64,000 nt of DNA from IMG/VR virus record IMGVR_UViG_3300047189_000028; one strand, written 5' to 3'. The stretch is from a virus. Taxonomy: Duplodnaviria > Heunggongvirae > Uroviricota > Caudoviricetes. The notes under the pieces were generated by a model. The model worked only from the letters and a program-made list of their open reading frames with translations. It did not search any database and was not told where the DNA came from. Below are positions 2,761 to 50,563 of the stretch, in pieces (the stretch's first letter is position 1; each line of letters begins with the position of its first letter). The position numbers were made by a program, and so were the translations under genes.

Positions 2761-3036
2761 TCACGCTGGCACTTTGACAGGATGTGCAGCTTCAAATTCA
2801 GCATACGTCATCGAATCACCGACGGCGCCTACGCCAGTTGCAATGAACGAACCACGAGACTTCGAGATTGCCTTGACGCCATTCTTTCGCTTGCGTCCGT
2901 CGAATTTACGAAACGTTGATTCCTGCCAACCTTGCCCTTTGCAGCCAAGACAGATTACCGCAGTTCCTTTTGCCTCGGCAAATCCACAATAAAGGCCAGT
3001 TCCGTTGCAAGAAACACATTCATGAATTACGTTCAT
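2761..3036 (-). CDS. small CxxC zinc-finger protein (91 aa)
   Basis: Internal ATG at 3036 with GGAG RBS. The N-terminal part of the listed ORF overlaps the neighbouring gene. CVSCNG...CLGCKG. Confidence 0.4.
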   Translation of the reverse strand: MNVIHECVSCNGTGLYCGFAEAKGTAVICLGCKGQGWQESTFRKFDGRKRKNGVKAISKSRGSFIATGVGAVGDSMTYAEFEAAHPVKVPA

Positions 3037-3037
3037 G

Positions 3038-3388
3038 TTAGTTACTCCCAGTTTCGCATACACAGTCGAGTAGATCAGCTTTCGATGTCCATTCGCCACA
3101 TTCCTTGCATTTCGTTTTGCACTCACAATCTTCTGTGAGTTCACCACACTTCCGGCACTCACCGTCTTCATTTTCACCCATTTCAAGAGCACATGGCTTG
3201 AGAGGGAAATCGTCCTGAATCTGGCCACAGTTCAGGCACCAGCTGAACTCAACATAGTCGCCACCACCGATCCCCATGTCACTTGGTAGGTAGCCGTCTT
3301 GTTCGTTTTCACCAATCGAGACAAAATGAAGGTCACTTGCCTTGCTGTTAACCGAAGCAATGCGATTGCTGCCACATTTGCATGTCAT
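3038..3388 (-). CDS. Cys-rich zinc-ribbon protein (116 aa)
   Basis: AGGAGAG RBS; multiple CxxC pairs. Confidence 0.5.
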   Translation of the reverse strand: MTCKCGSNRIASVNSKASDLHFVSIGENEQDGYLPSDMGIGGGDYVEFSWCLNCGQIQDDFPLKPCALEMGENEDGECRKCGELTEDCECKTKCKECGEWTSKADLLDCVCETGSN

Positions 3389-3390
3389 GA

Positions 3391-3789
3391 TTACTCTCCT
3401 GCGTTTGGAAATGGGTTGAGGTGACCAAGCCTGATCATCTCTTCATACTTGCGGAACAACCGATCGAACTTGCGGTGATACAACTGGTGTAGGCCAAGAA
3501 CAATGTTTGCAATCTCGTCCTTTGTCATTTCATCATCTTCCATTACCGCCTCAAACAGAACATCAAGATCGTCAGTAACATGCCATGCATCCATGATCTT
3601 GTCTTCTAGTGTGTCATTTGGACCAGCATTGACAATCTGCTGCTCAGCTGGTTTGATTTTTGCTGCAAGTTCATTTGCTGCAAGGACAAAGTCGACATTT
3701 GGTGGTTCGCCGTAACGATTGACACCTCGAGCAGCAAAGAATGTCAGAAGATCGTGGATCCGTTCTGCAGTGTGATCGTCGATGTTCAT
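3391..3789 (-). CDS. hypothetical protein (132 aa)
   Basis: ORF track; tightly packed operon. Confidence 0.5.
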   Translation of the reverse strand: MNIDDHTAERIHDLLTFFAARGVNRYGEPPNVDFVLAANELAAKIKPAEQQIVNAGPNDTLEDKIMDAWHVTDDLDVLFEAVMEDDEMTKDEIANIVLGLHQLYHRKFDRLFRKYEEMIRLGHLNPFPNAGE

Positions 3790-3989
3790 CGCTTGACCAC
3801 TTCAAATAGCTTCTCGATCATCTCTGAACGAACACGTTGTTCAGCGGTGTATAGTATGTGATCGGAAACGTTTCCTTTGACTGCAAGCACACACTTGATC
3901 ATGCGGATTGCATTGATCACGCACTCAACGTCGTCGTCTCTCATATCTTTCTCAAGAACGACGGTTAATGAATGAATTCGGTCTGTCAT
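3786..3989 (-). CDS. hypothetical protein (67 aa)
   Basis: ORF track; 4-nt overlap coupling. Confidence 0.4.
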   Translation of the reverse strand: MTDRIHSLTVVLEKDMRDDDVECVINAIRMIKCVLAVKGNVSDHILYTAEQRVRSEMIEKLFEVVKR

Positions 3990-3994
3990 AATAC

Positions 3995-4198
3995 TTACCT
4001 CGGAATGTCCTTCAGTGGCTCTTCACTCCTTGCCTCGACAATCAGCCTCATCAACTGAGCCTCGAGAATCAGAGCAGTTTCCTTTGCAGCAATGATCTCT
4101 TCGCGAGGGTTCTTTGCACCAACATCAAGCATTCGGAATGCTGTCGTTGATCCATACGCTCGCAGTAGCATTGAGTTCAGTTCACGCCTTGTAGCCAT
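3995..4198 (-). CDS. hypothetical protein (67 aa)
   Basis: ORF track. Confidence 0.4.
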   Translation of the reverse strand: MATRRELNSMLLRAYGSTTAFRMLDVGAKNPREEIIAAKETALILEAQLMRLIVEARSEEPLKDIPR

Positions 4199-4300
4199 AT
4201 ATCACCTATTGGGTCAGTAAACAAATAGACATCACAATAACGTACAGAAGAATGCCGATTGTGACATTCCTCCAAAAATGAAACGGTTCGACTGGTTCGC

Positions 4301-4519
4301 TCATCGGTGAACATCGTCACGAGGATTTGGCTTCTCGCCAGAAGCACCCCAGTACGCAAGACGAATCAGCTCACCATCAGACAGCATGCAATACTCTCGT
4401 GTACACGCAAGACGGCGAGCCTCACGAAGGATTCGATCACCTTCGGGCGTTTCCGCCTTTCGCCCCCACAACGCTCTCGTCTCTGGTTTCGTTTCGTCTA
4501 CGATTTTCATAATCTTCAC
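4301..4519 (-). CDS. hypothetical protein (72 aa)
   Basis: ORF track. Confidence 0.4.
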   Translation of the reverse strand: MKIMKIVDETKPETRALWGRKAETPEGDRILREARRLACTREYCMLSDGELIRLAYWGASGEKPNPRDDVHR

Positions 4520-4631
4520 CTTTCTCCTGAGCTAAGTCACACAGCGACCAATTTCCAATACCCCAAAATCATGTCCCCGATTGCTGTTACCATCATCACA
4601 ATTCTCTACGGTATCGCAGAGCCTTCGACAA

Positions 4632-4925
4632 TTACTTGCGAATAAACCTCTCGTAAACAATCATACCGATTATGCACAGTGGGATCACAATAAACCACAG
4701 TTTGATAATCAATACGAGTGCAAGTCCTGCGCCACATGCGGCGAGCATTAACATCCCACCGCCACTGAGTGTCTTCCAAAATCCCTTCCAGCCAGAATGA
4801 AATACCATTCCGCAAGCAAGCAGCGCTGGGATACCAAATATCACCCATAAGATTGACATACTACGATCTCCTTGTGATTTCAACTTCCCAACCATTCTGT
4901 TTGCAGAACTCTTCCACCCCTTCAA
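4632..4925 (-). CDS. membrane protein (97 aa, 2 TM)
   Basis: ORF track; hydrophobic helices. Confidence 0.45.
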   Translation of the reverse strand: MKGWKSSANRMVGKLKSQGDRSMSILWVIFGIPALLACGMVFHSGWKGFWKTLSGGGMLMLAACGAGLALVLIIKLWFIVIPLCIIGMIVYERFIRK

Positions 4926-5289
4926 CTGTCACGTTGGAAAAGAAGCAGTCAGCCCATTGCTCCTCATTCCCTTCGAATACTTCTCCGCCTTCCACGATAA
5001 TATCAAGCTTCGGCAGTGGCTCAACAAATTCAGGTTGTTCGTACAATGGCTGCCAATAACCCAAATACCGTTCAAGTGCCTCAACAATTGGCTTCAGTAC
5101 AACATCAATTGGAGGATGGTGACTCGTTGTATAGTACACAGGTGCGATTGCATTCGGCGCAGCGTTCATATACGCACTGACACCGATTGGTCGGTTGTGC
5201 TCATATAAGATTCGCTTCAAGCTCTCATACGTCTGACATAGTACGAATGCAGCCTGTTCCGGATTACCGTTATAGTTCATCTGCATCAA
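4861..5289 (-). CDS. hypothetical protein (142 aa)
   Basis: ORF track. Confidence 0.45.
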   Translation of the reverse strand: MMQMNYNGNPEQAAFVLCQTYESLKRILYEHNRPIGVSAYMNAAPNAIAPVYYTTSHHPPIDVVLKPIVEALERYLGYWQPLYEQPEFVEPLPKLDIIVEGGEVFEGNEEQWADCFFSNVTVEGVEEFCKQNGWEVEITRRS

Positions 5290-5588
5290 ACAATCTCCAT
5301 TGTTCTCTCAACGATTGCCCATTCGATGTTCGACCACACGGTGATATTACCATCCTTACCCTTGATCTTGAGATTGCCAAGCGTACACCACGTATTCCAT
5401 GGATTCGACCTTGTTCGGCTGATTACTTCCAAAATGTCACCTTCGCGGTATACTTCAACCGGTGTGACAAACGAATGTAACACCCTAATCTTGTCCCCAG
5501 CTTTTGGTAGACGTGCAGGTGTATCCATAGTAATCGACATTCGCTTATTGCCGGCGCCATAAGCCTTTCTGATGATACTGAATCTCAT
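5286..5588 (-). CDS. hypothetical protein (100 aa)
   Basis: ORF track. Confidence 0.45.
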   Translation of the reverse strand: MRFSIIRKAYGAGNKRMSITMDTPARLPKAGDKIRVLHSFVTPVEVYREGDILEVISRTRSNPWNTWCTLGNLKIKGKDGNITVWSNIEWAIVERTMEIV

Positions 5589-5589
5589 A

Positions 5590-5912
5590 AAGTCTCCAAG
5601 AAGTGAAACGTTGTCAGCGCGAGGAATCGAACCTCGAATTCAAATGCGTGTTAACCGTTGACACTACCCCAACAACGTCATAAACAAATTCGCGATGAGT
5701 TAGGCTCATAACTCCACCTGACGGTCGGCTGCATCTGAGTCAGGTACCCAAGCCTTTCGTATGCAGTTGATGGCTCGGCGTCAATTCGCGTTCAGTATGT
5801 GCTGGGGGTCGAAACCCAGACAGGCCGCTAAGCCTTACACTGTTAAAGTAGTGTTGCCTCCTTCAGTGCTACGGTTTCGAACCCATATAGCATCGTGGCC
5901 ACACACCGAACA
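5590..5912 (-). ncRNA. promoter-driven structured non-coding transcript (no ORF of 60 aa or more), containing tRNA-like T-arm motifs and nested hairpins
   Basis: ~320 nt lies between the promoter at 5919..5947 and the next CDS. It contains GGTTCGATTCC (rc of 5622-5632) and a GGTTTCGAACC nested hairpin (5864-5906). Confidence 0.3.
5612..5673 (-). other. tRNA 3'-half-like fragment (T-arm CGAGG-TTCGATT-CCTCG plus a 7-nt acceptor-like strand); incomplete, no anticodon arm
   Basis: A canonical T-stem/loop is seen in the reverse complement. Folding as a full 72-nt cloverleaf fails: only ~62 nt and no anticodon arm. Confidence 0.25.
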
Positions 5913-5918
5913 CAGGAC

Positions 5919-5947
5919 ACTATACCCCAAACATTTTATGATGTCAA
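5919..5947 (-). promoter_or_regulatory. sigma70-like promoter TTGACA-N17-TATAGT (reads leftward)
   Basis: rc: TTGACAtcataaaatgtttggggTATAGT. Confidence 0.5.
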
Positions 5948-6251
5948 ATTGGGTGGGGGACACCGTTTCGTTGGTAGCCAAACAATGCGAATACGGTGCT
6001 AGGAGTGGGTGGCAATGGCGGGTTGTAACGCCGATCGGGGTAACAGTAAATACACAATGCAAGAACAGCTGCTAACTCATTGATGGGATTGGGAGAAATT
6101 GGGTAGTCAGCTGTTGTGTGATTATTGGTCTGGTTGGGTGAGACTTTGCAAAAACGTTACACACCCTAGAGGTTCAAAAGGTCAACAATTAAATTTTTCC
6201 AATCCAAATCGAATCGATCGTGTCGATCATTCCCACAGGTAACCTGTTTTT

Positions 6252-6983
6252 ATGAATAAACGAAAGTCTAAGTACCCACCATATTCGCAAGCTCGTGCTA
6301 GTGCACTAGATTTACAGCTTAATTCCCGTGCTGATTACATCAAGTGGCATAAGGATACAAAATGCCAATACCTCCCTCGTTATCCTGAGCGTGTGTATAA
6401 GGAGTTTGTTTCGTGGAATGATTGGCTTGGGACTGCAAATGTGTTCAAAGGAGATGTTGTTAAGCCAGCGCGTCCTTTCTGGGATGCTGTCAAGTGGGCG
6501 CAGGACCATGCTGCTGTTCATAAGTTAGATACTATGGCTGATTGGTTACTGTGGGTGAAGGAACATGAGGAAGAATTGCCTACCGACATTCCACCCCGAC
6601 CCGATACACGTTATACCGAATGGTCGCAAATAGGGTGGAAGGGATGGTTAGGAACGGATGTTCGTGGACGACTCGCAGCTGCTAAGCAGTCAACAGCTTT
6701 GTTCGCTATTTGTTCTCACCACAACCTTCGTATGCCTGGTAACAAGTTTGCATTGATACAAGCTGAGCAGGGGGAGGCTCAGTTGTTGAATATCCTAAAG
6801 CAGGCAGGCGACTTGCGAGTCGTTCGTTGCTACAAAATGGATAATGAGTTGAAAGAGAAGGTTCACGAACTGTTAGCTCAGTACGGTCGTGACGAAGGGG
6901 ATGGATGGTTCATCCCAAATGTTAACAATGTTCTGTTTGAGCTTGATGGAATGCTTCAGGTGTACCGTGGAAGTGGGATGTAA
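6252..6983 (+). CDS. hypothetical Trp-rich protein (243 aa); lone plus-strand gene inside a minus-strand block
   Basis: ORF track. Repeated Y..W..WLGT motifs, and HNLR followed ~36 aa later by Tyr (weak recombinase-like pattern). Confidence 0.5.
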   Translation: MNKRKSKYPPYSQARASALDLQLNSRADYIKWHKDTKCQYLPRYPERVYKEFVSWNDWLGTANVFKGDVVKPARPFWDAVKWAQDHAAVHKLDTMADWLLWVKEHEEELPTDIPPRPDTRYTEWSQIGWKGWLGTDVRGRLAAAKQSTALFAICSHHNLRMPGNKFALIQAEQGEAQLLNILKQAGDLRVVRCYKMDNELKEKVHELLAQYGRDEGDGWFIPNVNNVLFELDGMLQVYRGSGM

Positions 6984-7117
6984 GTGGGATAGTTGTGGGA
7001 TCAAACTGGGATTGTGTGGGATGCTAGTGGCATGAACCTGAACAAACCTTACAAGACCGTATTGTATGTTCGATAGAGTGGGATAACAGTGGGATCAAAC
7101 TGGGATTGTGTGGGATT
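6974..7117. repeat. two arrays (6+4 copies) of heptamer GTGGGAT/CTGGGAT phased every 11-12 bp, including a 29-bp direct repeat GTGGGATCAAACTGGGATTGTGTGGGAT x2
   Basis: Read directly: copies start at 6974, 6985, 6996, 7007, 7018, 7028 and at 7079, 7090, 7101, 7111. Confidence 0.9.
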
Positions 7118-7430
7118 ACGCAATAGGCAATTGGTCAAATGGGACGAGTATTCCCAATGGATACAGCTTCTTGAACTCCAATGATGCCTTCAATTCAGTA
7201 TCAAATCGCTTTTGATGCTTGAAGAATGAGTAAATCCCCAGATTTTCCACATAGTTCGCGCGGACATAGATCGCCCACTTACCATCAATACCGAGCTTGA
7301 CTGACGCGACTGCCTTTGAATCTAGCATATTTCCCCGAAAAATGACGCCTGAGCTTGGAACACCAGGCGTGGTCACAAATGTAACACTTCCAATACGGGC
7401 ATATTTCAGCCCTAGACGTAGTTGTCTCAC
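7116..7430 (-). CDS. hypothetical protein (104 aa)
   Basis: ORF track. Confidence 0.45.
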   Translation of the reverse strand: MRQLRLGLKYARIGSVTFVTTPGVPSSGVIFRGNMLDSKAVASVKLGIDGKWAIYVRANYVENLGIYSFFKHQKRFDTELKASLEFKKLYPLGILVPFDQLPIA

Positions 7431-7682
7431 CCAAAATGGAGTGAGAGCACGGATATTTAGCTTCCAACAAATTTAGTTTCAGGTCAACCGGAGTGTTGTC
7501 TGTGTTATTTTGGCCGGATGGACGGATCGAAGACACGATCCCACCGTATTATCCCAAAAATTCGTGTTGACTACAACAGACTGCTCCTTTATGGGTGAGG
7601 CAAAAGGTGACGGTCAACAGCGCACACCCGTTGAACAGCACACCAAAGGAGACGATAATGCTATTGTCAGGAACCGAGTGTC

Positions 7683-7750
7683 AATTTTAGAAAATTTGAG
7701 ACAGCGTTCCGGGACTTGCTGGGCTCCCGTTTCGCGGCGTCGGTGGTCTT
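7683..7750. other. conserved intergenic element copy A (AATTTTAGA...ACAGCGTTCCGGGACTTGCTGGGC...)
   Basis: A 24/25-nt near-identical core is shared with 15890..15950. Confidence 0.7.
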
Positions 7751-7774
7751 TCCCTGTTTTTCTATTGTGGAGTG

Positions 7775-7803
7775 ATTATTGCCTGACCTAGTGTTGGGGT
7801 CAA
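7775..7803 (-). promoter_or_regulatory. possible sigma70-like promoter TTGACC-N17-AATAAT
   Basis: rc: TTGACCccaacactaggtcaggcAATAAT; weak -10. Confidence 0.3.
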
Positions 7804-7977
7804 CGTGTCACCGACCGAGCCAGTGCTCGCCGGAATACACTCTGATGCTCTTGTCAATCGCGTATACGACGATTGCAACTGGGTAGAGGACCCACGGAGC
7901 GACGATGACGATCGTCATCGTGATTGTGAACACCACCATTGCGAGTGCAATCCCGGAGTATACCAACAGTCGGAACA

Positions 7978-8250
7978 TCATGAGAGGCGCGGCGGCTTAC
8001 CTATTGTCTGGACCTTCGGCAGCTTGTCGGCAGGTAGCGGGGTGTACACGTCCTTCAGCGCTTCAGCGATCGTTGCCCGCGTATCGGAGGCATCCATCAC
8101 ACCGAGGCTGTTCAGCATTTGGAGTATCTGACCGGCCTGGCTCAGCAGCACGATCGCAAGGACCTTGCTGTCATATTCGCCAGCCATCTCATGGACCTTC
8201 TCGGTAATCTCACGGGTTACCGTGTTGAAGTGTTGCTTTTGAACATCCAT
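7978..8250 (-). CDS. hypothetical protein (90 aa)
   Basis: Internal ATG (MDVQKQH...) with GGAGATAACC RBS. Confidence 0.5.
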   Translation of the reverse strand: MDVQKQHFNTVTREITEKVHEMAGEYDSKVLAIVLLSQAGQILQMLNSLGVMDASDTRATIAEALKDVYTPLPADKLPKVQTIGKPPRLS

Positions 8251-8252
8251 GG

Positions 8253-8477
8253 TTATCTCCGAGAAGTGATTGCAGTATCCAGGGCCCACAACTTCGATGA
8301 AACCGTGCGGAGCTCTTCAGCTTCCCGGGTAGCGTGTTGGGGTGTGGGGCCGTTGCGAGTGCTTTGTAGCTCACTGATCTTCATGTTGATCAGACGATAT
8401 AGCCACCCCAGGTCCTGGTTGTTGAGTACCTTATCGGCTTCGATTGTCAGGCGAACATTTGCCATAGCTTTCCCCAT
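8253..8477 (-). CDS. hypothetical protein (74 aa)
   Basis: ORF track; first gene after the promoter at 8494..8522. Confidence 0.5.
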   Translation of the reverse strand: MGKAMANVRLTIEADKVLNNQDLGWLYRLINMKISELQSTRNGPTPQHATREAEELRTVSSKLWALDTAITSRR

Positions 8478-8493
8478 AGTTCTCCGTGCGTGT

Positions 8494-8522
8494 AGTTTAC
8501 CCTAAACCGAGGTTAAGGTCAA
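8494..8522 (-). promoter_or_regulatory. sigma70-like promoter TTGACC-N17-(TTTAGGG)TAAACT
   Basis: rc: TTGACCttaacctcggtttagggTAAACT. Confidence 0.45.
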
Positions 8523-8710
8523 CTGTGTGCCGCTCTATCCAGGATAGTGCTGGCAAGCTCATCTTCAGGCTTCAGAGCTTTGAACCGGCCGGTAAGCTCA
8601 GCCCGAACATGGTCCGGGAAGAACTTCGCAATGTCGGCTGCGGACATCTCTTCGACGACAATACTCGGTTCCTTCCGACGGTACGTGATGTTCCACTTCG
8701 GTTCAGCCAT
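8519..8710 (-). CDS. hypothetical protein (63 aa, MAEPKWNITYRR...)
   Basis: Start coupled (ATGGCTGA) to an upstream 41-aa membrane peptide ORF (8705..8828, AGGAGA RBS). Confidence 0.4.
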   Translation of the reverse strand: MAEPKWNITYRRKEPSIVVEEMSAADIAKFFPDHVRAELTGRFKALKPEDELASTILDRAAHS

Positions 8711-8837
8711 TGGGGCGTTTCCAATAGTTGCGGCTTGCCCACGCCTTGCCAATACTTTCGATTGCCTCAACGACGATGAGGACGATGAACAGAGTCATCC
8801 ACGGGTGGGCCATACACCAGGTAGTCATTCATTTCTC

Positions 8838-9257
8838 CTAGAGAGCGAGGCGGAGGCCGAGGCGGTAGTTGTGAACCGCATACCCGGTCTCAACACCTAT
8901 TGTAATGTATTCCCACGCCTTGATCAACCCCTTGGGTGCCCCACCATCAACCAGTTCATACGTAACGGCTGCGTGAAGCAGGTCGGTTGCGATGAAGTAG
9001 CCAACGACCTTGGCGTCTGATGGGTGCTTGCCGAGAATGAAGTTCGTTTCCTCGATCTTGCCAGGGTGGTGCTTGATATCAAGCGTCGTCAGCATGTCGA
9101 GGCCCGCGGCAGCGAAGTAGACGTACTCCTCCTTCGGCAGCGACTTCCAGAAGGGTTTGCACCACTGCGTGCACTTGGCTTCAGTGGTTTCGGTTTCCTG
9201 CGCCAGGGCAGCGGATGAGAAGGCAAGCAGCGCAAAAGCTGCGAGTAGATGCTTCAT
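8838..9257 (-). CDS. secreted/periplasmic protein with cleavable signal peptide (139 aa)
   Basis: MKHLLAAFALLAFSSAALAQ...; GGAGG RBS. Confidence 0.6.
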   Translation of the reverse strand: MKHLLAAFALLAFSSAALAQETETTEAKCTQWCKPFWKSLPKEEYVYFAAAGLDMLTTLDIKHHPGKIEETNFILGKHPSDAKVVGYFIATDLLHAAVTYELVDGGAPKGLIKAWEYITIGVETGYAVHNYRLGLRLAL

Positions 9258-9445
9258 TTGATTTCCTCCAAAAGTTCAATCGTGATGCGGACCCTGAAGG
9301 CGCGGTCGCCGAGGGTATTTCCTTTCGTAGCAGCCCGGGCGGCCTTCACCGTGATGATCTCCGGGAACTTGTGGTAGTCCTGGAAGAAGCCACCACGCTT
9401 CGTCATGATGACGGCCTTCTTCGAGTTGTCCAGAATGATGCTCAT
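9254..9445 (-). CDS. hypothetical protein (63 aa)
   Basis: ORF track; overlap coupling. Confidence 0.45.
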   Translation of the reverse strand: MSIILDNSKKAVIMTKRGGFFQDYHKFPEIITVKAARAATKGNTLGDRAFRVRITIELLEEIK

Positions 9446-10299
9446 GCGCGCCTCCGCAGTTGGGCGTAGTAAGTCGAAGCCGTGGTTTCCTTCATCCCGG
9501 CTTCCACGGCGCGGACGATGAACTGTCCACGGGTGAGGTGGCCGCCATACCGCGCCATGATCCCGACGGCGATGTCCTTGGAGCTCCGCGTGCCATCCAT
9601 AACCTTCTGCTTGAGCGCAGGCGGCAGCTTGCTCGGCGGAATGTGCTCGTCAGTGAACCGTACCGGGGTCTTCTGCTGAGCGGCCTCGCGCGCCTGTTCG
9701 TACGAGACCTGGCCGCGGTTCGCGATGAATCTGAGCTGACCGCGCTCACGACCGCAGCGCTTGCACGTGTAGAACGACTTGCCCGGGTTCATCAGCTCAT
9801 ACCGGCGCTGCTTGTTATGGCGCACGCTGCTGACAAACAGCGACTTGTTGCAGCACTTGCACTGGTACTCGAACTTCGTCTTGACGCGCACCTGGGCGTT
9901 CGTCGTGTCCATGTCGTGCGTGCGCTGCGGTTCCACACCGAAGATGTTCCGCATGATGTGCTTCCACGACGGGCCGTGAATGCTGCGCTTGGCGCGGCGC
10001 ATGCGGCCGTAGCGATCAAACCGGATGCCCTCGCTCTGGTTGTCACCATTCGCGGTGTCAATGCAGTGAGCGACTTCGTGGGCGATCGTCTCGCCGAAGT
10101 ATTCCTCGGGGTTCTCCATGAGGAGAATCGGGTTGAAGTCGACCGTATGCGTTCCCCGTGCAACGCCGGCCGTACGGCCGCGGAGGTCGAACTTGACGAG
10201 GGGAACGTTGTAGTGGCGGCCGGTCTTCTTCGTAGCCAAGGCAACGTAGCGCTTGACTTCGTTCTCGACGCGAGCTCGCATTTCAACTGGTACGTGCAT
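9442..10299 (-). CDS. SprT-like zinc metalloprotease with C-terminal zinc ribbon
   Basis: HEVAHC (HExxH) in the ETIAHEVAHCID context typical of SprT. CxxC...CxxC follows. GAGGAG RBS. Confidence 0.6.
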   Translation of the reverse strand: MHVPVEMRARVENEVKRYVALATKKTGRHYNVPLVKFDLRGRTAGVARGTHTVDFNPILLMENPEEYFGETIAHEVAHCIDTANGDNQSEGIRFDRYGRMRRAKRSIHGPSWKHIMRNIFGVEPQRTHDMDTTNAQVRVKTKFEYQCKCCNKSLFVSSVRHNKQRRYELMNPGKSFYTCKRCGRERGQLRFIANRGQVSYEQAREAAQQKTPVRFTDEHIPPSKLPPALKQKVMDGTRSSKDIAVGIMARYGGHLTRGQFIVRAVEAGMKETTASTYYAQLRRRA

Positions 10300-10364
10300 C
10301 TCTGTGCTCCTCTTGACGATGGAGACATTTTACCCCAAACCGGGGTCAACGCAACGGGTGTGTC

Positions 10365-10631
10365 CTACTGCTCCAGGACAAGAGCGAGGATTGGGCGATC
10401 GGTCTCTTCGTCGTGGATCTGAATGTAATCCACGCTTTCGCCCATGAAGTAGACGTCTTCGATCGTTAGGTTGTTCAGGAAGCCATTGGCGTTGAGAACA
10501 TCCAGGGTGAGCTGGTCATCCTCTGCGACGGCGAGATCGACGTCGATGCTGCCGACCTGGTGCTGGTCATTGACTTCCCAGCTACCGTTACGGTCCTGGA
10601 TCACATCGAGAGTGGTGACAGCGAATCGCAT
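10365..10631 (-). CDS. acidic hypothetical protein (88 aa)
   Basis: Internal ATG (MRFAVTT...) with AGGAGA RBS. Confidence 0.45.
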   Translation of the reverse strand: MRFAVTTLDVIQDRNGSWEVNDQHQVGSIDVDLAVAEDDQLTLDVLNANGFLNNLTIEDVYFMGESVDYIQIHDEETDRPILALVLEQ

Positions 10632-10687
10632 TTGAGTCTCCTGAAACGATGCGGGGAGGATACACCCTCCCCGCACCTGAGGTCAAC

Positions 10688-11746
10688 TCAGTTCAGCTTG
10701 CCGAAGAACGCCTTCTCGTGGTTGTCGAAGCTCGCATCACGCGGCTTGACAAAACGCGAAGCGTGCTGGGTCAGATCCTGATGGTTGAAGATGAAGTCAT
10801 TCGCCATCCGATCCAGGGCCAGTGCACTTGAACCTTCCGTCTCGCGCGTGTGCGTGCGGACCTCAGTGACGAGGTTGTACGCATCGAACAGTGAGAGATG
10901 GCCAGGAACCTGCGCACTCAGGCGCTTGTCCTTGAACACATTCTCACGATACACATTACCCATGTGCATCGACGGATCAGCCACCTGGATGATCGTACGA
11001 AGCTGGTCGTGCGCATCTTCACCCTGCATGGTCTGCTCGAAACGCTTACGAGCGTGGCTGGCAATCGCCTGAAGCTCACTCACCGTAGCGTACTGATCAC
11101 CCATGCCAGCGAGACGCTTCTTGACCATCCCATCGACCTTGTTCTGGATCTGAGCGTTCGCGATGTCGAGATGCTCCTCCCAGCGATTGATCAACGGGAT
11201 CTTCGTGTTCAGGAACGAAGTCACACCACGCATGCCGTTCTCACAGATCAGACGCCACAGCATGAACGCGCTGTTGACCGTCTTGACGAACGGGTTCCAT
11301 GAGAAGAGCAGTTCGGACTTGAACTCACCACCGTCGTTGTACTCAGGCACGACGATCTTCTGCTTCGACCACGACGTGCCGAGCGTGTAAGCGTGCGACG
11401 TCAGGTTGTCCTGAAGAGTCGTCGACAGCTCCTTCGCCTCGACAATGCCGATCACCTTGACGAGCTGCTTGATGCTCTCGTCTTCGTGAACGAAGCCAGC
11501 GTAGTTCCCGTAGCGGAAGTCAACCAGGACTCCCTCGACGAAGAAATACGTGCCACCACTCATCAGGGCTTCCAGCGCGCTGACATCCATCGTCTCGAGG
11601 TTCCGAGAAACCCGCGACTCCGGATCGAACACGTGCTTGTAGGTGTTGTTGACGACGATCGTCGCAACAGGAAAGTTCTTCGAGTTCCTCGAAGCCGTAA
11701 CGCGCACCTTCGCGTTACGAATCAGCTCATACCGTAACTTATGCAT
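10688..11746 (-). CDS. hypothetical protein (352 aa)
   Basis: Internal ATG (MHKLRYELIRN...) with GAGGAG RBS, downstream of the promoter at 11802..11830. Confidence 0.55.
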   Translation of the reverse strand: MHKLRYELIRNAKVRVTASRNSKNFPVATIVVNNTYKHVFDPESRVSRNLETMDVSALEALMSGGTYFFVEGVLVDFRYGNYAGFVHEDESIKQLVKVIGIVEAKELSTTLQDNLTSHAYTLGTSWSKQKIVVPEYNDGGEFKSELLFSWNPFVKTVNSAFMLWRLICENGMRGVTSFLNTKIPLINRWEEHLDIANAQIQNKVDGMVKKRLAGMGDQYATVSELQAIASHARKRFEQTMQGEDAHDQLRTIIQVADPSMHMGNVYRENVFKDKRLSAQVPGHLSLFDAYNLVTEVRTHTRETEGSSALALDRMANDFIFNHQDLTQHASRFVKPRDASFDNHEKAFFGKLN

Positions 11747-11801
11747 TTGAACTCCTCGTGTGCTGCCACAGCACGTTGGTTTAGATTCATCTGACCAGGA
11801 G

Positions 11802-11830
11802 AGTATCCCAGATCTGACCCTAGAGGTCAA
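11802..11830 (-). promoter_or_regulatory. sigma70-like promoter TTGACC-N17-GATACT
   Basis: rc: TTGACCtctagggtcagatctggGATACT. Confidence 0.45.
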
Positions 11831-11833
11831 CGC

Positions 11834-12061
11834 CTACAGTTTGTCCCTGAGGAGCAGATTGAGGTCGGCCAAAGCGTCCGTATTAACGATAAGGTCGGCG
11901 ATCGCCTCAGCATCTTCCCTGCTGAGTATGAGATCGTATTGATCGATCTTCTTGCGAATCAGTGCAGCAGTATCGACCACGAGGTCCGCAGTGATTGCGT
12001 CCTCCTCAGCTTCGTGGTACGTGCCGTCCTTTGCCTTCCACATTGTGATTCGTTCAGCCAT
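11834..12061 (-). CDS. hypothetical protein (75 aa)
   Basis: ORF track. Confidence 0.45.
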   Translation of the reverse strand: MAERITMWKAKDGTYHEAEEDAITADLVVDTAALIRKKIDQYDLILSREDAEAIADLIVNTDALADLNLLLRDKL

Positions 12062-12062
12062 G

Positions 12063-13262
12063 TCAGACTCCTATTGCGTCTCGAACGGGACCAGTCTCGC
12101 CATTTTCAGCTTCGCGGGCAAGACGACTGGCCTTGAGAAAGTCGTCCAGCGACAACGTCTTGATCTGAGCCTTCGCCTCAGCTAGCGTCATTCTCTTGAC
12201 CGAAGTCAAGTCCTGACCACTCTTGAAGATCGACTCAGGCTTGAATGCACCCTTACGATACACACCCTTCGTCGTCAAGTGCTTCAGAAGAGTCCGAAGC
12301 GCGATGTACGAGTCCAGCGTCTCAACACGACGAGTCATTCCGATTAGCCAAGCGATGGCGATCGTAAACTTCAAGCCAGTGTCGAATGTCTGCTTCACTT
12401 CGTTCGCGATGTTCGGCAGGTTGACAGTGCGAAGCTGAATCATCATGTCGTCGAGGCCAAGCGGCTCAATCGAATCGTAGCCGAACACATCAGACAACAC
12501 ACGACCAGCTTTCAGTGCGAATCCAAGATTGACGCACAGATGGTCGTCGACCTTGTCGAATTGAGTTTTGTCAGCTTCCTGGTGAATGTACGTGACCGAC
12601 GAATCATTCTCGACCTCGTCGTCGTTGCGAGTATCACCCTTCGCAGTCAACTGACGCTGGCCGATGTTGGTGAGCGTCTTCCAGATCGGCGGAGTCAATG
12701 CCATCTCACCAGTCTTCGGATAGAACGCAAGACATACTCGCTGTTCAAGTTCAGGCTTGTCGCCGAGAGCTGCGAGCTTGATCGCTTCGACCTTGACCTG
12801 GCGAAACTTCTTGTCACTTGACAGGACCTCAGCTTCTTTGAGGTTCTCTTCCGAAACGTGATACACGTATGAGCCATCGATGTACCAGTTACGATCCATC
12901 ATCAAGCTCTTGAGAATCTTGTCGGAGTTGACTTGTGAATCCGACTGCCACGTCACCTCGCCGAAAAGACCTTCCGTCTTCTCGCGACCGAGATTGCCGA
13001 GTGGATGACGTTCGAGACACACGACGTGGTCTTCGTAGAACGTCACAGCAGTGAGGACAGGCTTGATGTACTTCGTGATCCGATACTTCTTTGCGAAGTG
13101 CCGAGTGAGGTGGTACGGAATTCGGATCTTGCCGAACACTTCCTTGCCAGCCTGCTTGGAACGCTTGTCATCCAGGAACGTCAGCATGCCACCAAGAGCA
13201 CCACTGACCATCTTGATCTGCATGTGTTTCGTCACGAGCTTGGTAGCGTCGAACCGAATCAT
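12063..13262 (-). CDS. hypothetical protein (399 aa)
   Basis: ORF track; GGAGAGG RBS. Confidence 0.55.
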   Translation of the reverse strand: MIRFDATKLVTKHMQIKMVSGALGGMLTFLDDKRSKQAGKEVFGKIRIPYHLTRHFAKKYRITKYIKPVLTAVTFYEDHVVCLERHPLGNLGREKTEGLFGEVTWQSDSQVNSDKILKSLMMDRNWYIDGSYVYHVSEENLKEAEVLSSDKKFRQVKVEAIKLAALGDKPELEQRVCLAFYPKTGEMALTPPIWKTLTNIGQRQLTAKGDTRNDDEVENDSSVTYIHQEADKTQFDKVDDHLCVNLGFALKAGRVLSDVFGYDSIEPLGLDDMMIQLRTVNLPNIANEVKQTFDTGLKFTIAIAWLIGMTRRVETLDSYIALRTLLKHLTTKGVYRKGAFKPESIFKSGQDLTSVKRMTLAEAKAQIKTLSLDDFLKASRLAREAENGETGPVRDAIGV

Positions 13263-13331
13263 TAGTATATCCTCTCCGTTACTGTAGGAGCATCTTAGTT
13301 GAAATCGCGATCAGGGTCTAGCGTGTCACCG

Positions 13332-13577
13332 TTACTGTGACAGTGAACTCCTGGTGATTTTAACGCGAATGTTGCCGGTGGTATCAAATTCACCACCTGG
13401 TTCAACATTTAAGCCAAAACAGTAGGCTGTGTGTAGCGCAGATTTGATCTGTGCAATCACTTGCTGTTTGGCCTTCTGATCCTTTTTGCTCGTTCCATAC
13501 GAGAAGAACGGCACAGCGACGTCGATCTTGACGTTGACCACCGTTGCCTTATCTTTCTTGGGTTGATACTTCTTCAT
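13332..13577 (-). CDS. hypothetical protein (81 aa)
   Basis: ORF track. Confidence 0.45.
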   Translation of the reverse strand: MKKYQPKKDKATVVNVKIDVAVPFFSYGTSKKDQKAKQQVIAQIKSALHTAYCFGLNVEPGGEFDTTGNIRVKITRSSLSQ

Positions 13578-13600
13578 GATCGTCTCCGTACGTTATCAGG

Positions 13601-14749
13601 TTAGCGTCTGACCGGCGGGCCTCGAACGATCGTGTGTTCGACTTTCATCTCGTTGTGGTGGCTGACATAATCGAACTCCTGTTCGATCCAGTCACCGTGT
13701 CGCTTTGAGATCAACCGATGTCTCTCTGGAGTGCCGACAACGACAGTTGTGTCGAGGTTTCGACCACTGAGAGGGTTGACAAGCTCCCACACGCGACAAT
13801 CGCTGTCCGGACGTGAAGCACGACCAATCACCTGGTTCAGTTGTGGATACGAACCATACGACCTGCCGAGGAAGACATCAGTGCAGCCCTTAACATCAAC
13901 GCCCTCATTGATCTTGTTGCAGTTCAGCAGGAACTGGATCTCACCACGACTGAAGCGATTCAACGTCTCATCCAACTCTTTGTTGGATTGAGTTAGGATT
14001 GCGATGGATTTCTTCTTCATCTTCGAGAGGTACTCGTTGACTTCAACGACTTCCTTCTTCGTGCGGAAGAACATCATCGTCTGACCGAACTCGTTGCCGA
14101 ATCGGTCAAGGATCATCTTCGTCACAGGAACCTTATCCTGGTGAGGAGTGTCAACGATTGTGTTCAGATACGTCGGAGCCAACCAGCCTTCAGCGACACA
14201 CTGTTCGCGACTGATCGGAGCGACAATCGACTCGAACTTAATCAGCATGCCGTCTGCACGATCAGGAGTCGCAGTCAGGCCGAGAATCGGCTTCTTGCCG
14301 AGTCGGTCCAAGCGGAACTGAATCGTCTGCATTGCCTCGTGGTGTGCTTCATCGATACAAGCGACGTCCCACACGAGACCTTTCGGAATGTCCTGAAATG
14401 CTGAGTGAGCGAAGAACTTGACGTTCGACGCATCAGCGTACGCTTCTTCAGCCTGAGTCAACAGTCTGTGCTTGTGAGCGACAAACAGAAGACGAAGGTC
14501 CTTGCCAGGCTTGATTCCAAGCGCTTTGCGAATCCGATCGGACGAAAAGATCAGACCAGACGTGACAGTCTTGCCAGCGCCAGTCGGCAGTTCGACGAGG
14601 ATACGCTTGACACCACGTTCGAGAGCGTCTTCCACCTGATTGCAGGCAGCCTTCTGGTACCAGCGAATCTCCTTCTCGCCGTACATGATGACTTCGTCTT
14701 CACCACCATCAATGGCTTCGAAGTCTTCATTCTCGATTTCCTGGCTCAT
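13601..14749 (-). CDS. SF2 DEAD/DEAH-box helicase
   Basis: Walker A ELPTGAGKT, DEAH box IDEAHH, and motif LGLTATP. Start at the MSQEIEN ATG (GGGAGA 6 nt upstream). Confidence 0.7.
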   Translation of the reverse strand: MSQEIENEDFEAIDGGEDEVIMYGEKEIRWYQKAACNQVEDALERGVKRILVELPTGAGKTVTSGLIFSSDRIRKALGIKPGKDLRLLFVAHKHRLLTQAEEAYADASNVKFFAHSAFQDIPKGLVWDVACIDEAHHEAMQTIQFRLDRLGKKPILGLTATPDRADGMLIKFESIVAPISREQCVAEGWLAPTYLNTIVDTPHQDKVPVTKMILDRFGNEFGQTMMFFRTKKEVVEVNEYLSKMKKKSIAILTQSNKELDETLNRFSRGEIQFLLNCNKINEGVDVKGCTDVFLGRSYGSYPQLNQVIGRASRPDSDCRVWELVNPLSGRNLDTTVVVGTPERHRLISKRHGDWIEQEFDYVSHHNEMKVEHTIVRGPPVRR

Positions 14750-14773
14750 TAACATCTCTCCCGTTTGACGATA

Positions 14774-14802
14774 GTGGGATTATACTGGGATTCGAGTTGG
14801 AT
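14774..14802. repeat. phased heptamer array GTGGGAT-CTGGGAT-GTTGGAT (11-bp spacing) just upstream of the helicase start
   Basis: Read directly. Confidence 0.8.
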
Positions 14803-14815
14803 GCAACCGTCTGCC

Positions 14816-15100
14816 CTACTGGAGCGGGACCTCGTGGATCACCCACCAATCGTTCGGAAACTCGTAGCTGGTGTTGCGCAGGTTGACCTGGACGACAGGC
14901 GAACCCGCCTCCTTGAAGTCGACCTCGGTGATCTCGTACTGCTCTTCGGGATCATCCGCGGCATGCTCTGCAGCACATGCCTTGGCATGTGCGATTGCCT
15001 TGTCCCGCGTAGTGAACGCAGCACAGAAGCTATCGTGGAGGTCTGAGCAGCCGTACTCGATGATCCAGATAGTGGGATGCGAGTGGGATTCAGTAGTCAT
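14816..15100 (-). CDS. hypothetical protein (94 aa)
   Basis: Start MTTESHSHPTIW. The GTGGGAT repeats fall in codons 4-10; no alternative in-frame ATG. Confidence 0.4.
   Translation of the reverse strand: MTTESHSHPTIWIIEYGCSDLHDSFCAAFTTRDKAIAHAKACAAEHAADDPEEQYEITEVDFKEAGSPVVQVNLRNTSYEFPNDWWVIHEVPLQ
15071..15088. repeat. two phased GTGGGAT heptamers
   Basis: Read directly. Confidence 0.8.
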
Positions 15101-15324: not shown

Positions 15325-15353
15325 GTGGGATCCTTGTGGGATGTGAGTGGGAT
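15325..15353. repeat. three phased GTGGGAT heptamers (11-bp spacing)
   Basis: Read directly. Confidence 0.85.
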
Positions 15354-19394: not shown

Positions 19395-19937
19395 ATGGCA
19401 AGCGGAACACCTCTCAAACGAATCTTCAATGAAGCAGGAGAACTGACACACAAGGAATGCCGAAAGTGTGATCAAATGCTCCCTATCAATAATTTCTATC
19501 ACAAATACACATCCACTAGGTATCAACACGATAAGTCAAACAATCGTTGCATTCCTTGTCAAAAGATCCAATGGCATGAGCAAGCGAAGAATCCCGAATC
19601 TCGCAAGCGTTGGTTGTTAAGCCGAATCCGTACTAAATGTAAGAAGGAAAGACTCCCATTCGATTTAACTATCGAAGACTTGGCAATACCAACGCACTGT
19701 CCTATTTTTGGAATACCTCTCGCCTTCGGTGTAAAGACTCCGTCTTCATATCGAGAAAAGAAAGGACAGGTGACGGTTCCTGATGACAGTCCGTCTGTTG
19801 ACAGAATCGTCCCTGAACTTGGGTACGTCAAGGGCAATATAGTAATTGTCAGCTATCGTGCTAATCTAATCAAGACAAACGCTAGCGTGACAGAGTTGAT
19901 TAAGGTGGCTGAGTTCTATAAGATGCTTACATCGTAA
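19395..19937 (+). CDS. HNH homing endonuclease (HNH_3 type) with N-terminal zinc finger
   Basis: C-terminal SPSVDRIVPELGYVKGNIVIVSYRANLIKTN matches the phage HNH_3 signature. CRKC...CIPC zinc finger. The gene is AT-rich relative to the GC-rich surroundings. Confidence 0.65.
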   Translation: MASGTPLKRIFNEAGELTHKECRKCDQMLPINNFYHKYTSTRYQHDKSNNRCIPCQKIQWHEQAKNPESRKRWLLSRIRTKCKKERLPFDLTIEDLAIPTHCPIFGIPLAFGVKTPSSYREKKGQVTVPDDSPSVDRIVPELGYVKGNIVIVSYRANLIKTNASVTELIKVAEFYKMLTS

Positions 19938-22380: not shown

Positions 22381-22652
22381 AGATCACCAAAGCCAAGGCG
22401 AAGGTCGAGTTCTGTGTCGAGACCTCGTACCCAGCACAGTACTACTCGATTGAGCATGACGAAGCCATCGAGAAGCTCGCCAAGAAGTTCAAGGGCGAGC
22501 GCACTGGTGCCGGCATGGGTTTCGGTTACCGCGACAACGGTTTTTCATTTGCCAATGAAGTCACACGCGCTGCATTCGTCGGCGCCCTCACGAAAGCTCA
22601 GAAGACGCTGAAGGTCAGTAAGTGCTACCTGAGCGTTTACATCAACGACTAG
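22377..22652 (+). CDS. hypothetical protein (91 aa)
   Basis: ATGA coupling. Confidence 0.45.
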   Translation: MKITKAKAKVEFCVETSYPAQYYSIEHDEAIEKLAKKFKGERTGAGMGFGYRDNGFSFANEVTRAAFVGALTKAQKTLKVSKCYLSVYIND

Positions 22653-22679
22653 TGGGATGACAGTGGGATCCAACTGGGA
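22651..22679. repeat. three phased heptamers GTGGGAT-GTGGGAT-CTGGGAT upstream of a plus-strand gene
   Basis: Read directly; 12- and 11-bp spacing. Confidence 0.85.
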
Positions 22680-22693
22680 TAGGAGTGACATTC

Positions 22694-26096: not shown

Positions 26097-26125
26097 TTGA
26101 CACCAAAGTGGGATTAGGGTATCAT
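26097..26125 (+). promoter_or_regulatory. sigma70-like promoter TTGACA-N17-(TAGGG)TATCAT
   Basis: TTGACAccaaagtgggattagggTATCAT; the ATG lies 20 nt downstream. Confidence 0.5.
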
Positions 26126-29332: not shown

Positions 29333-29373
29333 CCTACATTAGGGTAAGCTCTCTACATCTACTGGAGACTACT

Positions 29374-50332: not shown

Positions 50333-50563
50333 TTATTTAATTCCAAAATGTTTTTTGATCATTTGCATTGCTGCAAGTCGACCGTATTCTTCGTTCATTG
50401 AAGTGAGGTCATCTGATGGGTCGAGCACCTTGAGGCACTCTTCAACAACCAGTTCACCAAACTTTTCTTCCCATACCCACGGCACAGGACCATCGCTGTC
50501 CTTGTAGGTTTCACAACAATGGTCAAATGCTTGTGTTGCAAGTTCACGAATCTTTGTGTTCAT
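50333..50563 (-). CDS. hypothetical protein (76 aa)
   Basis: ORF track. Confidence 0.45.
   Translation of the reverse strand: MNTKIRELATQAFDHCCETYKDSDGPVPWVWEEKFGELVVEECLKVLDPSDDLTSMNEEYGRLAAMQMIKKHFGIK

Follow-up and report, generated by a model that had tools for sequence, protein, structure and literature searches.

The 64,000-nucleotide stretch of DNA analysed here (the window), taken from the IMG/VR virus record IMGVR_UViG_3300047189_000028, carries clusters of the heptamer GTGGGAT, repeated in direct orientation with a period of 11 bp and all lying on the same strand. Sequence comparison shows that a clade of related phages has kept both the heptamer and its phase, while the spacers, the copy number and the gap between sub-clusters drift. 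Phased direct-repeat arrays bound by protein are a known kind of element, and the reading that we favour, although it falls a little short of what we would call probable, is that these arrays are cis-acting DNA sites for one sequence-specific protein, which would bind them cooperatively and head-to-tail and use them as operators or roadblocks.

The motif count was tested against 100 dinucleotide-preserving shuffles: the window holds 28 copies of GTGGGAT against 6.75±2.4 expected, and 0 of the 100 shuffles reached 28. The dimer TGGGAT-N5-TGGGAT, with at most one mismatch, occurs 13 times, always on the plus strand, against an expectation of 0.29. With one mismatch allowed, the histogram of same-strand spacings has a single sharp peak on the plus strand, at 11 bp, with harmonics at 22 and 33 bp (10/11 and 21/22 in the window), and no peak on the minus strand. 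An earlier note on this DNA had proposed such a count and autocorrelation as a check of the phased arrays that it described, and the outcome places its observation far beyond chance, leaving only small details of coordinate, count and spacing to be amended. Where the earlier note had about 25 copies at five loci, we count 21 units of (A/t)(G/c)TGGGAT in six clusters, which do recur at the sites that it named, some of them shifted by one position. Its statement that the heptamer always reads on the plus strand, whatever the direction of the neighbouring gene, was borne out. Its spacing of 11–12 bp holds as far as 11 bp is concerned; no 12-bp step occurs in the window, where the step is 11 bp except for two steps of 10 bp (7006 to 7016 and 7100 to 7110). 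The unit can be described as the 8-mer (A/t)(G/c)TGGGAT followed by a free spacer of 3–4 nt, repeated directly with an 11-bp period. All the arrays of the window sit in short intergenic gaps or just within the ends of genes; together with one isolated copy they are as follows.

6973–7033, plus strand: master array, sub-cluster 1; six (A)GTGGGAT units, with the variants CTGGGAT and, in the last unit, GTGGCAT; steps of 11, 11, 11, 10 and 11 bp
7034–7077: gap between the master sub-clusters; not AT-rich
7078–7116, plus strand: master array, sub-cluster 2; four units
14774–14802, plus strand: secondary array at the helicase promoter; three units
15072–15089, plus strand: secondary array at an open reading frame (ORF) of 94 amino acids (aa); two units
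15325–15353, plus strand: secondary array at the junction of a 303-aa and a 77-aa gene; three units
22652–22680, plus strand: secondary array in a rightward operon; three units
26108–26114, plus strand: lone exact heptamer in the spacer of a rightward promoter

The master array occupies the gap between the stop codons of two convergent genes, that of a rightward gene for a 243-aa protein (TAA, 6981–6983) and that of a leftward gene for a 70-aa protein (7116–7118). Sub-cluster 1 begins within the last codons and the stop of the former, and the last unit of sub-cluster 2 overlaps the stop of the latter. The duplication inside the array, previously given as a 29-bp unit repeated 90 bp away, in fact spans 40 nt: 7077–7116 copies 6983–7022 at an offset of 94 bp and with 93% identity. 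Two single degenerate copies had also been reported. The one near 6100 is indeed degenerate (ATGGGAT at 6083) and is not kept in relatives; the one at 26108 does lie inside a promoter spacer (TTGACA-17-TATCAT), but the heptamer there is exact.

The 243-aa protein has 55 homologues, with 43–82% identity. Genomic contexts were compared for twelve relatives that carry a homologue of its gene (49–82% protein identity), and in 11 of the 12 a TGGGAT array of 5–10 units with the 11-bp period extends from within a few bases of the stop of the 243-aa gene to the stop of the 70-aa gene. One of the eleven, L036, encodes the same protein as L035 (P0010), and its array was not read separately. The numbers of units in the others, by sub-cluster, are:

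L029: 4 and at least 2
L030: 4 and 3
L032: 3 and 4
L033: 4 and 4
L035: 4 and 4
L037: 3 and 5
L038: 6, contiguous
L040: about 9, degenerate
L041: 5
L042: 7

In L031 the two convergent genes overlap, and 600 bp beyond them a 4-unit array covers the start codon of the gene that follows. The gap between the sub-clusters measures from 0 bp (in L038, L041 and L042) to about 65 bp in the relatives; by this comparison it is not the conserved component. The pooled units of nine loci number 93, all of them on one strand (0 on the other). Column by column, T-G-G-G-A-T is kept in 93, 87, 93, 92, 93 and 92 of the 93 units, the two positions ahead of it are A in 70/93 and G in 75/93, and the spacer columns are near-random; the step is 11 bp in 56 of 62 cases, 10 bp in 5 and 12 bp in 1. 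From the sequences, we conclude that the arrays are under selection. The two arrays that invade ORFs bear on what is selected. In the window, the array at 15072–15089 closely follows the stop codon of the 77-aa gene and occupies initial codons (..ESHSHPT..) of the 94-aa ORF (14816–15100, minus strand); the homologous site in L032 (19288–19315) keeps the same heptamers with a different N-terminal peptide (SHSHPT vs ASHKNPT). Since the peptides differ while the heptamers stay, selection acts on nucleotides, whether as DNA or as RNA, and not on protein. The earlier note had held that absence of the arrays from relatives would speak against it; they are instead conserved, over the whole range of 49–82% identity of the linked protein. 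Co-variation of motif and protein was tried and found unusable, the heptamer being identical at every level of divergence (L029–L042 comparisons).

Further afield, the distant relatives L016–L028, in which the helicase is 41–67% identical, have no helicase-side arrays and carry an ordinary TTGAC...TATAAT promoter instead. Peptide-pattern scans of IMG/VR did not find the 243-aa family. An identical 243-aa protein is encoded on a 74.8-kb JGI contig, and window positions 3016–14563 have a counterpart of 99.86% identity on an 11.5-kb Logan contig. Megablast of the 6–9 kb region against GenBank phages gave no match, and the genes common to the window and to other genomes with arrays of three GTGGGAT amount to a generic helicase only.

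The one-turn period, the direct-repeat polarity, the invariant core of 6–8 bp, the free spacers and the variable copy number together form the signature of cooperative binding on one face of the helix. To this extent the protein-bound, helically phased array proposed in the earlier note is upheld by the sequence data: the 11-bp step predominates, TGGGAT is invariant against drifting spacers, and no RNA structure is predicted in the arrays on either strand (folding z=0.77 and 0.10). Rfam and tRNA scans of the arrays gave no match. In the mechanism that we propose, one copy of the protein would bind per helical turn and polymerise head-to-tail along one face of the duplex. Occupancy of a small array would occlude RNA polymerase or block elongation, and the genes of the replication module would thereby be down-regulated or timed. 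The 10-unit master array would serve as a high-capacity site for nucleation or loading, and also as a protein roadblock between converging transcription units in whose gap no intrinsic terminator is predicted. The binder, we infer, would be encoded by the phage.

The secondary arrays are small (2–4 units) and occupy tight gene junctions of the helicase module; their placement is central to this proposal. At four junctions in four genomes, representing two gene positions (the helicase gene and a gene for 397/401 aa), a sigma70-like promoter is interleaved with the array on the leftward coding strand.

13601–14755, minus strand: SF2 (superfamily 2) helicase gene (ResIII/Helicase_C, phrog_16)
Window, helicase promoter, minus strand: −35 TTGCAT (14806–14801), 16 nt, −10 TATAAT (14784–14779); array 14774–14802
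L035, helicase promoter: TTGCAA, 17 nt, TACAAT
L033, promoter of the 397-aa gene: TGGACG, 17 nt, TAAGAT
L037, promoter of the 401-aa gene: TTGCAT, 16 nt, TATAGT

Each of the four is followed by CCCAC-TATCG...GGAGAG...ATG. In the window the array ends 18 nt upstream of the helicase ATG (14755), and what follows it reads CCCACTATCG..GGAGAG..ATG. The −10 hexamer of these promoters is made up of a spacer and the first two bases of a heptamer, and the heptamers are centred near −27 and −16 and, in three-unit versions, also near −5. At five or six other junctions (window 15325, L032 19541, L031 1975, L037 19800 and 20150) the array covers the Shine-Dalgarno (SD) sequence and the start codon, the SD being made from a spacer, as in ATCCCAC AAGG ATCCCAC T ATG. 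The window example, 15325–15353, fills its junction, beginning at the 303-aa gene's stop and ending 1 nt short of the 77-aa gene's ATG, and reads TG ATCCCAC TCAC ATCCCAC AAGG ATCCCAC T ATG on the minus strand; the homologous site in L032 lies at 19541–19558. The array at 22652–22680 runs from a stop TAG (22650–22652) to the SD TAGGAG of the next plus-strand gene (ATG 22694), and the heptamer at 26108 lies within the rightward promoter TTGACA(26097)-ccaaaGTGGGATTAGGG-TATCAT(26125). In relatives, the helicase gene has arrays on one side or on both. The position of the arrays in core promoters and at tight gene junctions argues that the transcription of replication-module genes is controlled by occlusion or by a roadblock. 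Of the functions that the earlier note had listed (origin, partition site, packaging site or operator), the operator, or else a roadblock, fits best, because the arrays interleave with core promoters and cover SD sequences and start codons.

The ordinary strong promoters of this phage are different, consisting of GTTGACCCYAAC followed by a −10 element. Distinct from these is a second promoter-proximal motif, T(T/A)GGGTAnnnT (for example TTAGGGTAAACT, TTAGGGTAAGCT and GTGGGATTAGGGTATCAT), present at window positions 8478–8518, 10300–10364, 26097–26125 and 29333–29373 and at L030 2401–2435, sometimes directly 3' of a TGGGAT unit. It may represent a second promoter class.

Two genes are tied to the master array and could provide the protein.

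6252–6983, plus strand: gene for the 243-aa protein, the sole plus-strand gene in a leftward block
7116–7328, minus strand: gene for the 70-aa protein, conserved, convergent with the 243-aa gene; second candidate partner
7775–7803, minus strand: conserved sigma70-like promoter upstream of the 70-aa gene, GTTGACCCCAAC, 17 nt, AATAAT
XacN1 ORF338 (AP018399.1, 225125–226054): distant homologue of the 243-aa gene, convergent with a NUDIX gene
RAS14 (OP752703.1, 104176–105303): distant homologue of the 243-aa gene, convergent with a NUDIX gene

By linkage, the best candidate binder is the 243-aa protein, because its gene lies beside the array in all the clade genomes examined and because it contains two tandem helical units. 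These are INT_rpt (PF14882) repeats at approximately residues 21–61 and 90–135, which align with each other; the first is basic (pI 9.7). The INT_rpt match is marginal for the window protein alone, while 13 of 38 family members match, the best with E=2.6e-8. In a confident structural model of the protein (pLDDT 89.8), the C-terminal domain has a GIY-YIG-like fold without the canonical catalytic residues. Each of the two INT_rpt units could read one heptamer of a direct-repeat pair. The distant homologues listed above, from cultured Xanthomonas and Stenotrophomonas jumbo phages, are full-length and 23–25% identical. The 70-aa protein is basic (pI 9.3), with the conserved pattern MLDSKAV...YPxG.LvPF and a predicted beta3-alpha-beta topology, for which a structural search returned no informative neighbour; its promoter points leftward, so that transcription would cross a conserved leader and the gene itself before it enters the master array. 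Searches of PHROGs, Pfam, NCBIfam and PDB sequences put names to the helicase and an SprT-like protein among the flanking products and gave the weak INT_rpt match; the proteins of 70, 77, 94, 303, 380 and 399 aa had no match in them. A Pfam screen of 122 window ORFs, in which the best 25 of 43 families were inspected (the others being weaker), contained no candidate DNA-binding family better than E=1e-3.

The leader of the 70-aa gene (7640–7803, minus strand) contains a near-invariant block, GCCCAGCAAGTCCCGGAACG (approximately 7700–7729), found in seven genomes, as well as a second, tandem promoter (TTGACA-18-CATTAT, 7684–7655). It has no Rfam match and may be an unannotated regulatory RNA or leader.

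Several points weigh against a protein that represses or blocks transcription from these sites. The binder and its function are put forward as candidates only. Fold searches with the N-terminal repeats of the 243-aa protein gave no DNA-binding match, the searchable literature describes no function for INT_rpt, and the XacN1 and RAS14 homologues have no arrays adjacent to their genes. Nor is any array conserved ahead of the 243-aa gene itself, and so there is no obvious autoregulation. The promoters embedded in arrays have weak −35 elements (TTGCAT), which leaves room for activation instead of repression. A symmetric operator model does not account for the strand orientation shared by all arrays in all genomes. 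Finally, the overlap with SD sequences and start codons fits a mechanism at the RNA level equally well.

According to this last hypothesis, which we consider distinctly unlikely, leftward (AUCCCAC-N4)n repeats would be bound by an RNA-binding regulator, or would pair with the (GUGGGAU)n repeats in the 3' untranslated region of the 243-aa mRNA, controlling translation at the junctions; the master array would then be a decoy or a source of trans-acting antisense RNA. Nearly all secondary arrays are in leftward units and in the same sense orientation, with AUCCCAC in the sense RNA and often over the ribosome-binding site, and the earlier note's argument that independence of gene orientation speaks against an RNA element is for this reason weaker than it was made out to be. 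The five or six arrays over SD and start codon belong here as well, and the arrays are unstructured, hence accessible. The master array lies where convergent genes would transcribe it from both sides, one of them behind a strong conserved promoter, and it could in this way supply GUGGGAU repeats; pairing of several heptamers in register would need a fixed spacing. This tenet is challenged by the period itself, as 11 nt is the helical repeat of DNA and has no obvious rationale for a protein that binds RNA. It is also challenged by the arrays in rightward units (window 22652–22680, the heptamer at window 26108, and L030 2401), which keep the orientation of the genome strand and not of the transcript and thus have the opposite sense in RNA. 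At the four interleaved junctions the heptamers fall between the −35 element and +1 of the predicted promoter, and therefore upstream of the transcript made there. A Rho-utilisation site in the C-rich minus-strand RNA was also considered and ruled out, as rut sites need no invariant heptamer.

Strand polarity is uniform at about ten non-homologous positions, none of them reversed, which by our own estimate has a probability of approximately 2^-9 by chance. It is tied either to leftward transcription, with two or three exceptions, or to some process that has polarity, for instance the direction of the fork or a polar barrier. A speculative version of protein binding, to which we assign a low probability, takes up the second possibility: INT_rpt would be a DNA-reading module, one TGGGAT per unit, which with the degenerate GIY-YIG fold would build strand-polar, head-to-tail nucleoprotein filaments on the master array and at gene junctions, a polar barrier that coordinates the direction of the fork or of transcription throughout the replication module. 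Such a barrier would explain why the arrays point the same way in every genome regardless of gene orientation.

Uniform polarity would make sense relative to fork direction also if the master array were an iteron-type origin, at which a phage initiator or the flanking helicase system is assembled, the small arrays being auxiliary or copy-control 'handcuffing' sites. We regard this as unlikely, although parts of it are attractive. Helically phased direct repeats adjoin a replication module (helicase, SprT-like protein), in several relatives arrays flank the helicase gene, and the known iteron origins (lambda ori, P1 oriR/incA, plasmid origins) likewise combine direct repeats bound by an initiator with extra control clusters elsewhere. 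In a more distant relative, L176, part of the 291-kb contig that also contains L020, about 10 TGGGAT/TGGCAT units with the 11-bp step border a 1.3-kb non-coding tract with the classic look of an origin: three 21-bp iterons, very AT-rich stretches and palindromic ATATTCGA repeats. In sequence terms (L176 1964–3250, IMG/VR 3300025670_000050) these are about 10 (G/A)TGG(G/C)ATGAT units, three 21-bp GTGGGTGTAACACATGTTGAT and two ATATTCGA clusters. In an IMG/VR lineage unrelated to this one, a helicase-primase operon has tandem GTGGGATAGCC arrays at its end. The window itself fits less well. Origin function is weakened because no AT-rich unwinding element occurs near the master array: within 1 kb of it, the minimum G+C content (GC) is 0.375 (80-bp windows, 5400–8100). 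No recognisable initiator was found, the adjacent genes having no Rep-family match, and the units, at 7–8 bp, are much shorter than classical iterons of 17–22 bp. The gap between the sub-clusters falls to 0 in the three relatives named above, and many small arrays coincide with promoters or ribosome-binding sites, a placement for which an origin has no need.

The GTGGGATAGCC arrays are perfect tandem repeats of 3–7 units in L002, L004, L008, L009 and L011–L014 (IMG/VR), a phage lineage unrelated to ours. They lie directly 3' of a gene for a very basic 220-aa protein (phrog_1924, annotated 'minor tail'), which closes an operon with a phrog_16 helicase and a primase zinc-finger protein, and their orientation relative to the helicase strand is as in the window. 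In L006 (2440–2800, IMG/VR 3300020577_004843), an AT-rich stretch lies between GGGATCA/GTGGGATCA boxes that occur in both orientations; this looks like an iteron origin and is an unrelated element.

A host factor could also occupy 11-bp direct repeats, for example a response regulator of the OmpR/PhoB family or a DnaA oligomer, and would couple expression or replication to the state of the host; we consider this very unlikely. Pho boxes are built of a 7-bp repeat and a 4-bp spacer, exactly the layout seen here and in SARP and ArcA sites, and the Pho, OmpR/PhoB and SARP sites share with the arrays the resulting 11-bp period, which the window shows, 2–9 tandem units, head-to-tail occupancy of one face and overlap with the region from −35 to −10. 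The low-affinity DnaA arrays of oriC consist of boxes in the same orientation spaced 2 bp apart, again an 11-bp period. The empty result of the Pfam screen for DNA-binding families points the same way. The motif is nevertheless different from those of Pho, OmpR/PhoB and SARP sites, the arrays follow the genome strand and not the promoter, and a 10-unit master array lies between convergent genes. Sites for OmpR/PhoB-type activators have a fixed orientation and a position that replaces the −35 element; here the orientation relative to the promoter is not fixed, unlike that of a class II activator: leftward promoters contain ATCCCAC at −27/−16/−5 and rightward ones GTGGGAT at about −21 (and −32), and several arrays have no promoter. 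Within the 64-kb window, a part of the phage genome, no winged-helix Trans_reg_C match better than approximately E=1e-3 was found. The DnaA box 9-mer, TTATNCACA (reverse complement TGTGNATAA), is not matched: the unit AGTGGGAT-N3 needs an extra G and has no TAA tail. Moreover, the tight linkage of the master array to a single pair of phage genes holds throughout the clade.

The same heptamer and spacing do occur in cellular genomes. A scan of 185,579 species genomes found at least 120 array loci, where approximately 0.3 would be expected by chance (own estimate). Many are in metagenome-assembled genomes of Chloroflexota, at one locus per genome, as TGTGGGATAAA repeated three times, a DnaA-box-like sequence with one extra G that is nearer to the DnaA box than the phage unit and still not canonical. 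By analogy, a cellular protein that recognises motif and spacing plausibly exists; nothing links such a protein to this phage. The Chloroflexota loci, one large class of the matches (Caldilineaceae, Anaerolineae) that reads ccacacaatttt-GTGGGATAAAT three times, have no genes in common with the phage and adjoin mfd and mevalonate-pathway genes and not dnaA; the phage unit prefers A, not T, before GTGGGAT. In their own right, these loci (L045, L079, L101 and about 40 others, in Caldilineaceae, Anaerolineae and Chloroflexia) have the form ccacacaatttt-GTGGGATAAAT-GTGGGATAAAT-GTGGGATA. Among 24 that were checked, 12 are beside mfd and 9 beside the gene for HMG-CoA reductase; the unit TTATCCCACA is like a DnaA box with one extra C, and in this phylum the locus could serve as an origin or as the site of a regulator.

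A partition centromere of the R1 parC/ParR or tubC/TubR kind, or a packaging (pac) site, is in our judgement extremely unlikely; these are the weakest of the functions listed in the earlier note, because the loci are many and because the Pfam screen of the window contained no ParM, ParA, TubZ/tubulin, ParB or ribbon-helix-helix (RHH) family better than approximately E=1e-3. The parC site of R1 consists of ten 11-bp iterons in two blocks of five and doubles as the operator of the adjacent operon; the window, with 11-bp direct repeats in blocks of 6+4 and presumptive cooperative binding on one face, resembles it. Here, however, that screen gave no sign of ParM or ParR genes, the central gap is of variable length in relatives and has no conserved promoter, and small arrays scattered over promoters and ribosome-binding sites, five or more in number, suit neither a centromere nor a lone pac site. 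In addition, the phage looks lytic. A Chi-like or pac site was ruled out separately, as neither needs strict 11-bp phasing or placement at junctions only.

Two further systems may be set beside a head-to-tail operator. The Omega protein of pSM19035 is a small protein that binds 7-bp heptad arrays at several promoters, and these arrays also have a second, structural role, which parallels the combination of a master array and regulatory arrays; its heptads, unlike ours, are contiguous (7-bp period) and in both orientations, and it is an RHH protein, a family for which the screen gave nothing below the same threshold. The stoperators of mycobacteriophages and the start-associated sequences (SAS) of Cluster K are, like the present motif, short, asymmetric and found at many intergenic phage sites near gene starts; they are single sites of 13–14 bp oriented with transcription, as opposed to phased multi-copy arrays oriented by genome strand in an unrelated phage group. 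The sequence GGGATAGGAG at 22676–22685 matches the first 10 nt of GGGATAGGAGCCC, which we take to be the SAS.

The window appears to be part of a large, lytic-looking jumbo phage, with rIIA and rIIB genes and no integrase or plasmid functions seen.

41291–43525: rIIA
40088–41287: rIIB

It also encodes a methyltransferase besides the SprT-like protein, and relatives of its helicase are located on IMG/VR contigs of 60–350 kb. In a rough gene map, transcription is leftward up to 5588, followed by a poorly coding 2.2-kb tract (5589–7807) that contains one confident plus-strand gene (6252–6983) and one short convergent minus-strand gene; it is again leftward to about 16.3 kb, rightward from 16.5 to 29.6 kb, and then leftward once more. 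The GC content rises from approximately 44–47% to 51–57% between about 8 and 30 kb (50–51% at 18–22 kb) and then falls back. In L020, rIIA-rIIB lies directly upstream of the helicase gene, and window 14.8–40 kb is therefore extra DNA relative to L020; judged by composition and gene order, a mosaic or acquired block is possible. A tRNA-like sequence at 5612–5673 (minus strand) scores 29.1 bits against the Rfam tRNA model (gathering score 29; E=0.0022) and is not called by ARAGORN, which finds no tRNAs in the relatives; T-arm-like strings (GGTTCGAAACC) occur nearby, also at 5800–5890, within the 650 bp of non-coding DNA that precede the 243-aa gene. Genes for a QueE-like radical-SAM protein (phrog_2076, 50563–51495) and for two PTPS/QueD-like proteins suggest, from their annotation, 7-deazaguanine modification of the DNA. 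If guanines were modified, recognition of the G-rich heptamer could be affected.

The searchable literature contains no description of this motif, of its conservation across the clade, of its linkage to the INT_rpt/GIY-YIG-like and 70-aa proteins or of its strand polarity, and the regulatory DNA of uncultured jumbo phages is almost uncharted. That motif, phase and polarity were kept while the linked 243-aa protein diverged to 49% identity points to a regulon-like set of sites around replication genes, for which the two orphan genes in tight linkage are candidate trans-factors. Were the INT_rpt protein the binder, this would provide a widespread Pfam repeat with a biochemical function and a defined target sequence. 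The uniform polarity is unusual for operators and could reveal a polar mechanism, be it a barrier to forks or to transcription, or the directionality of an origin.

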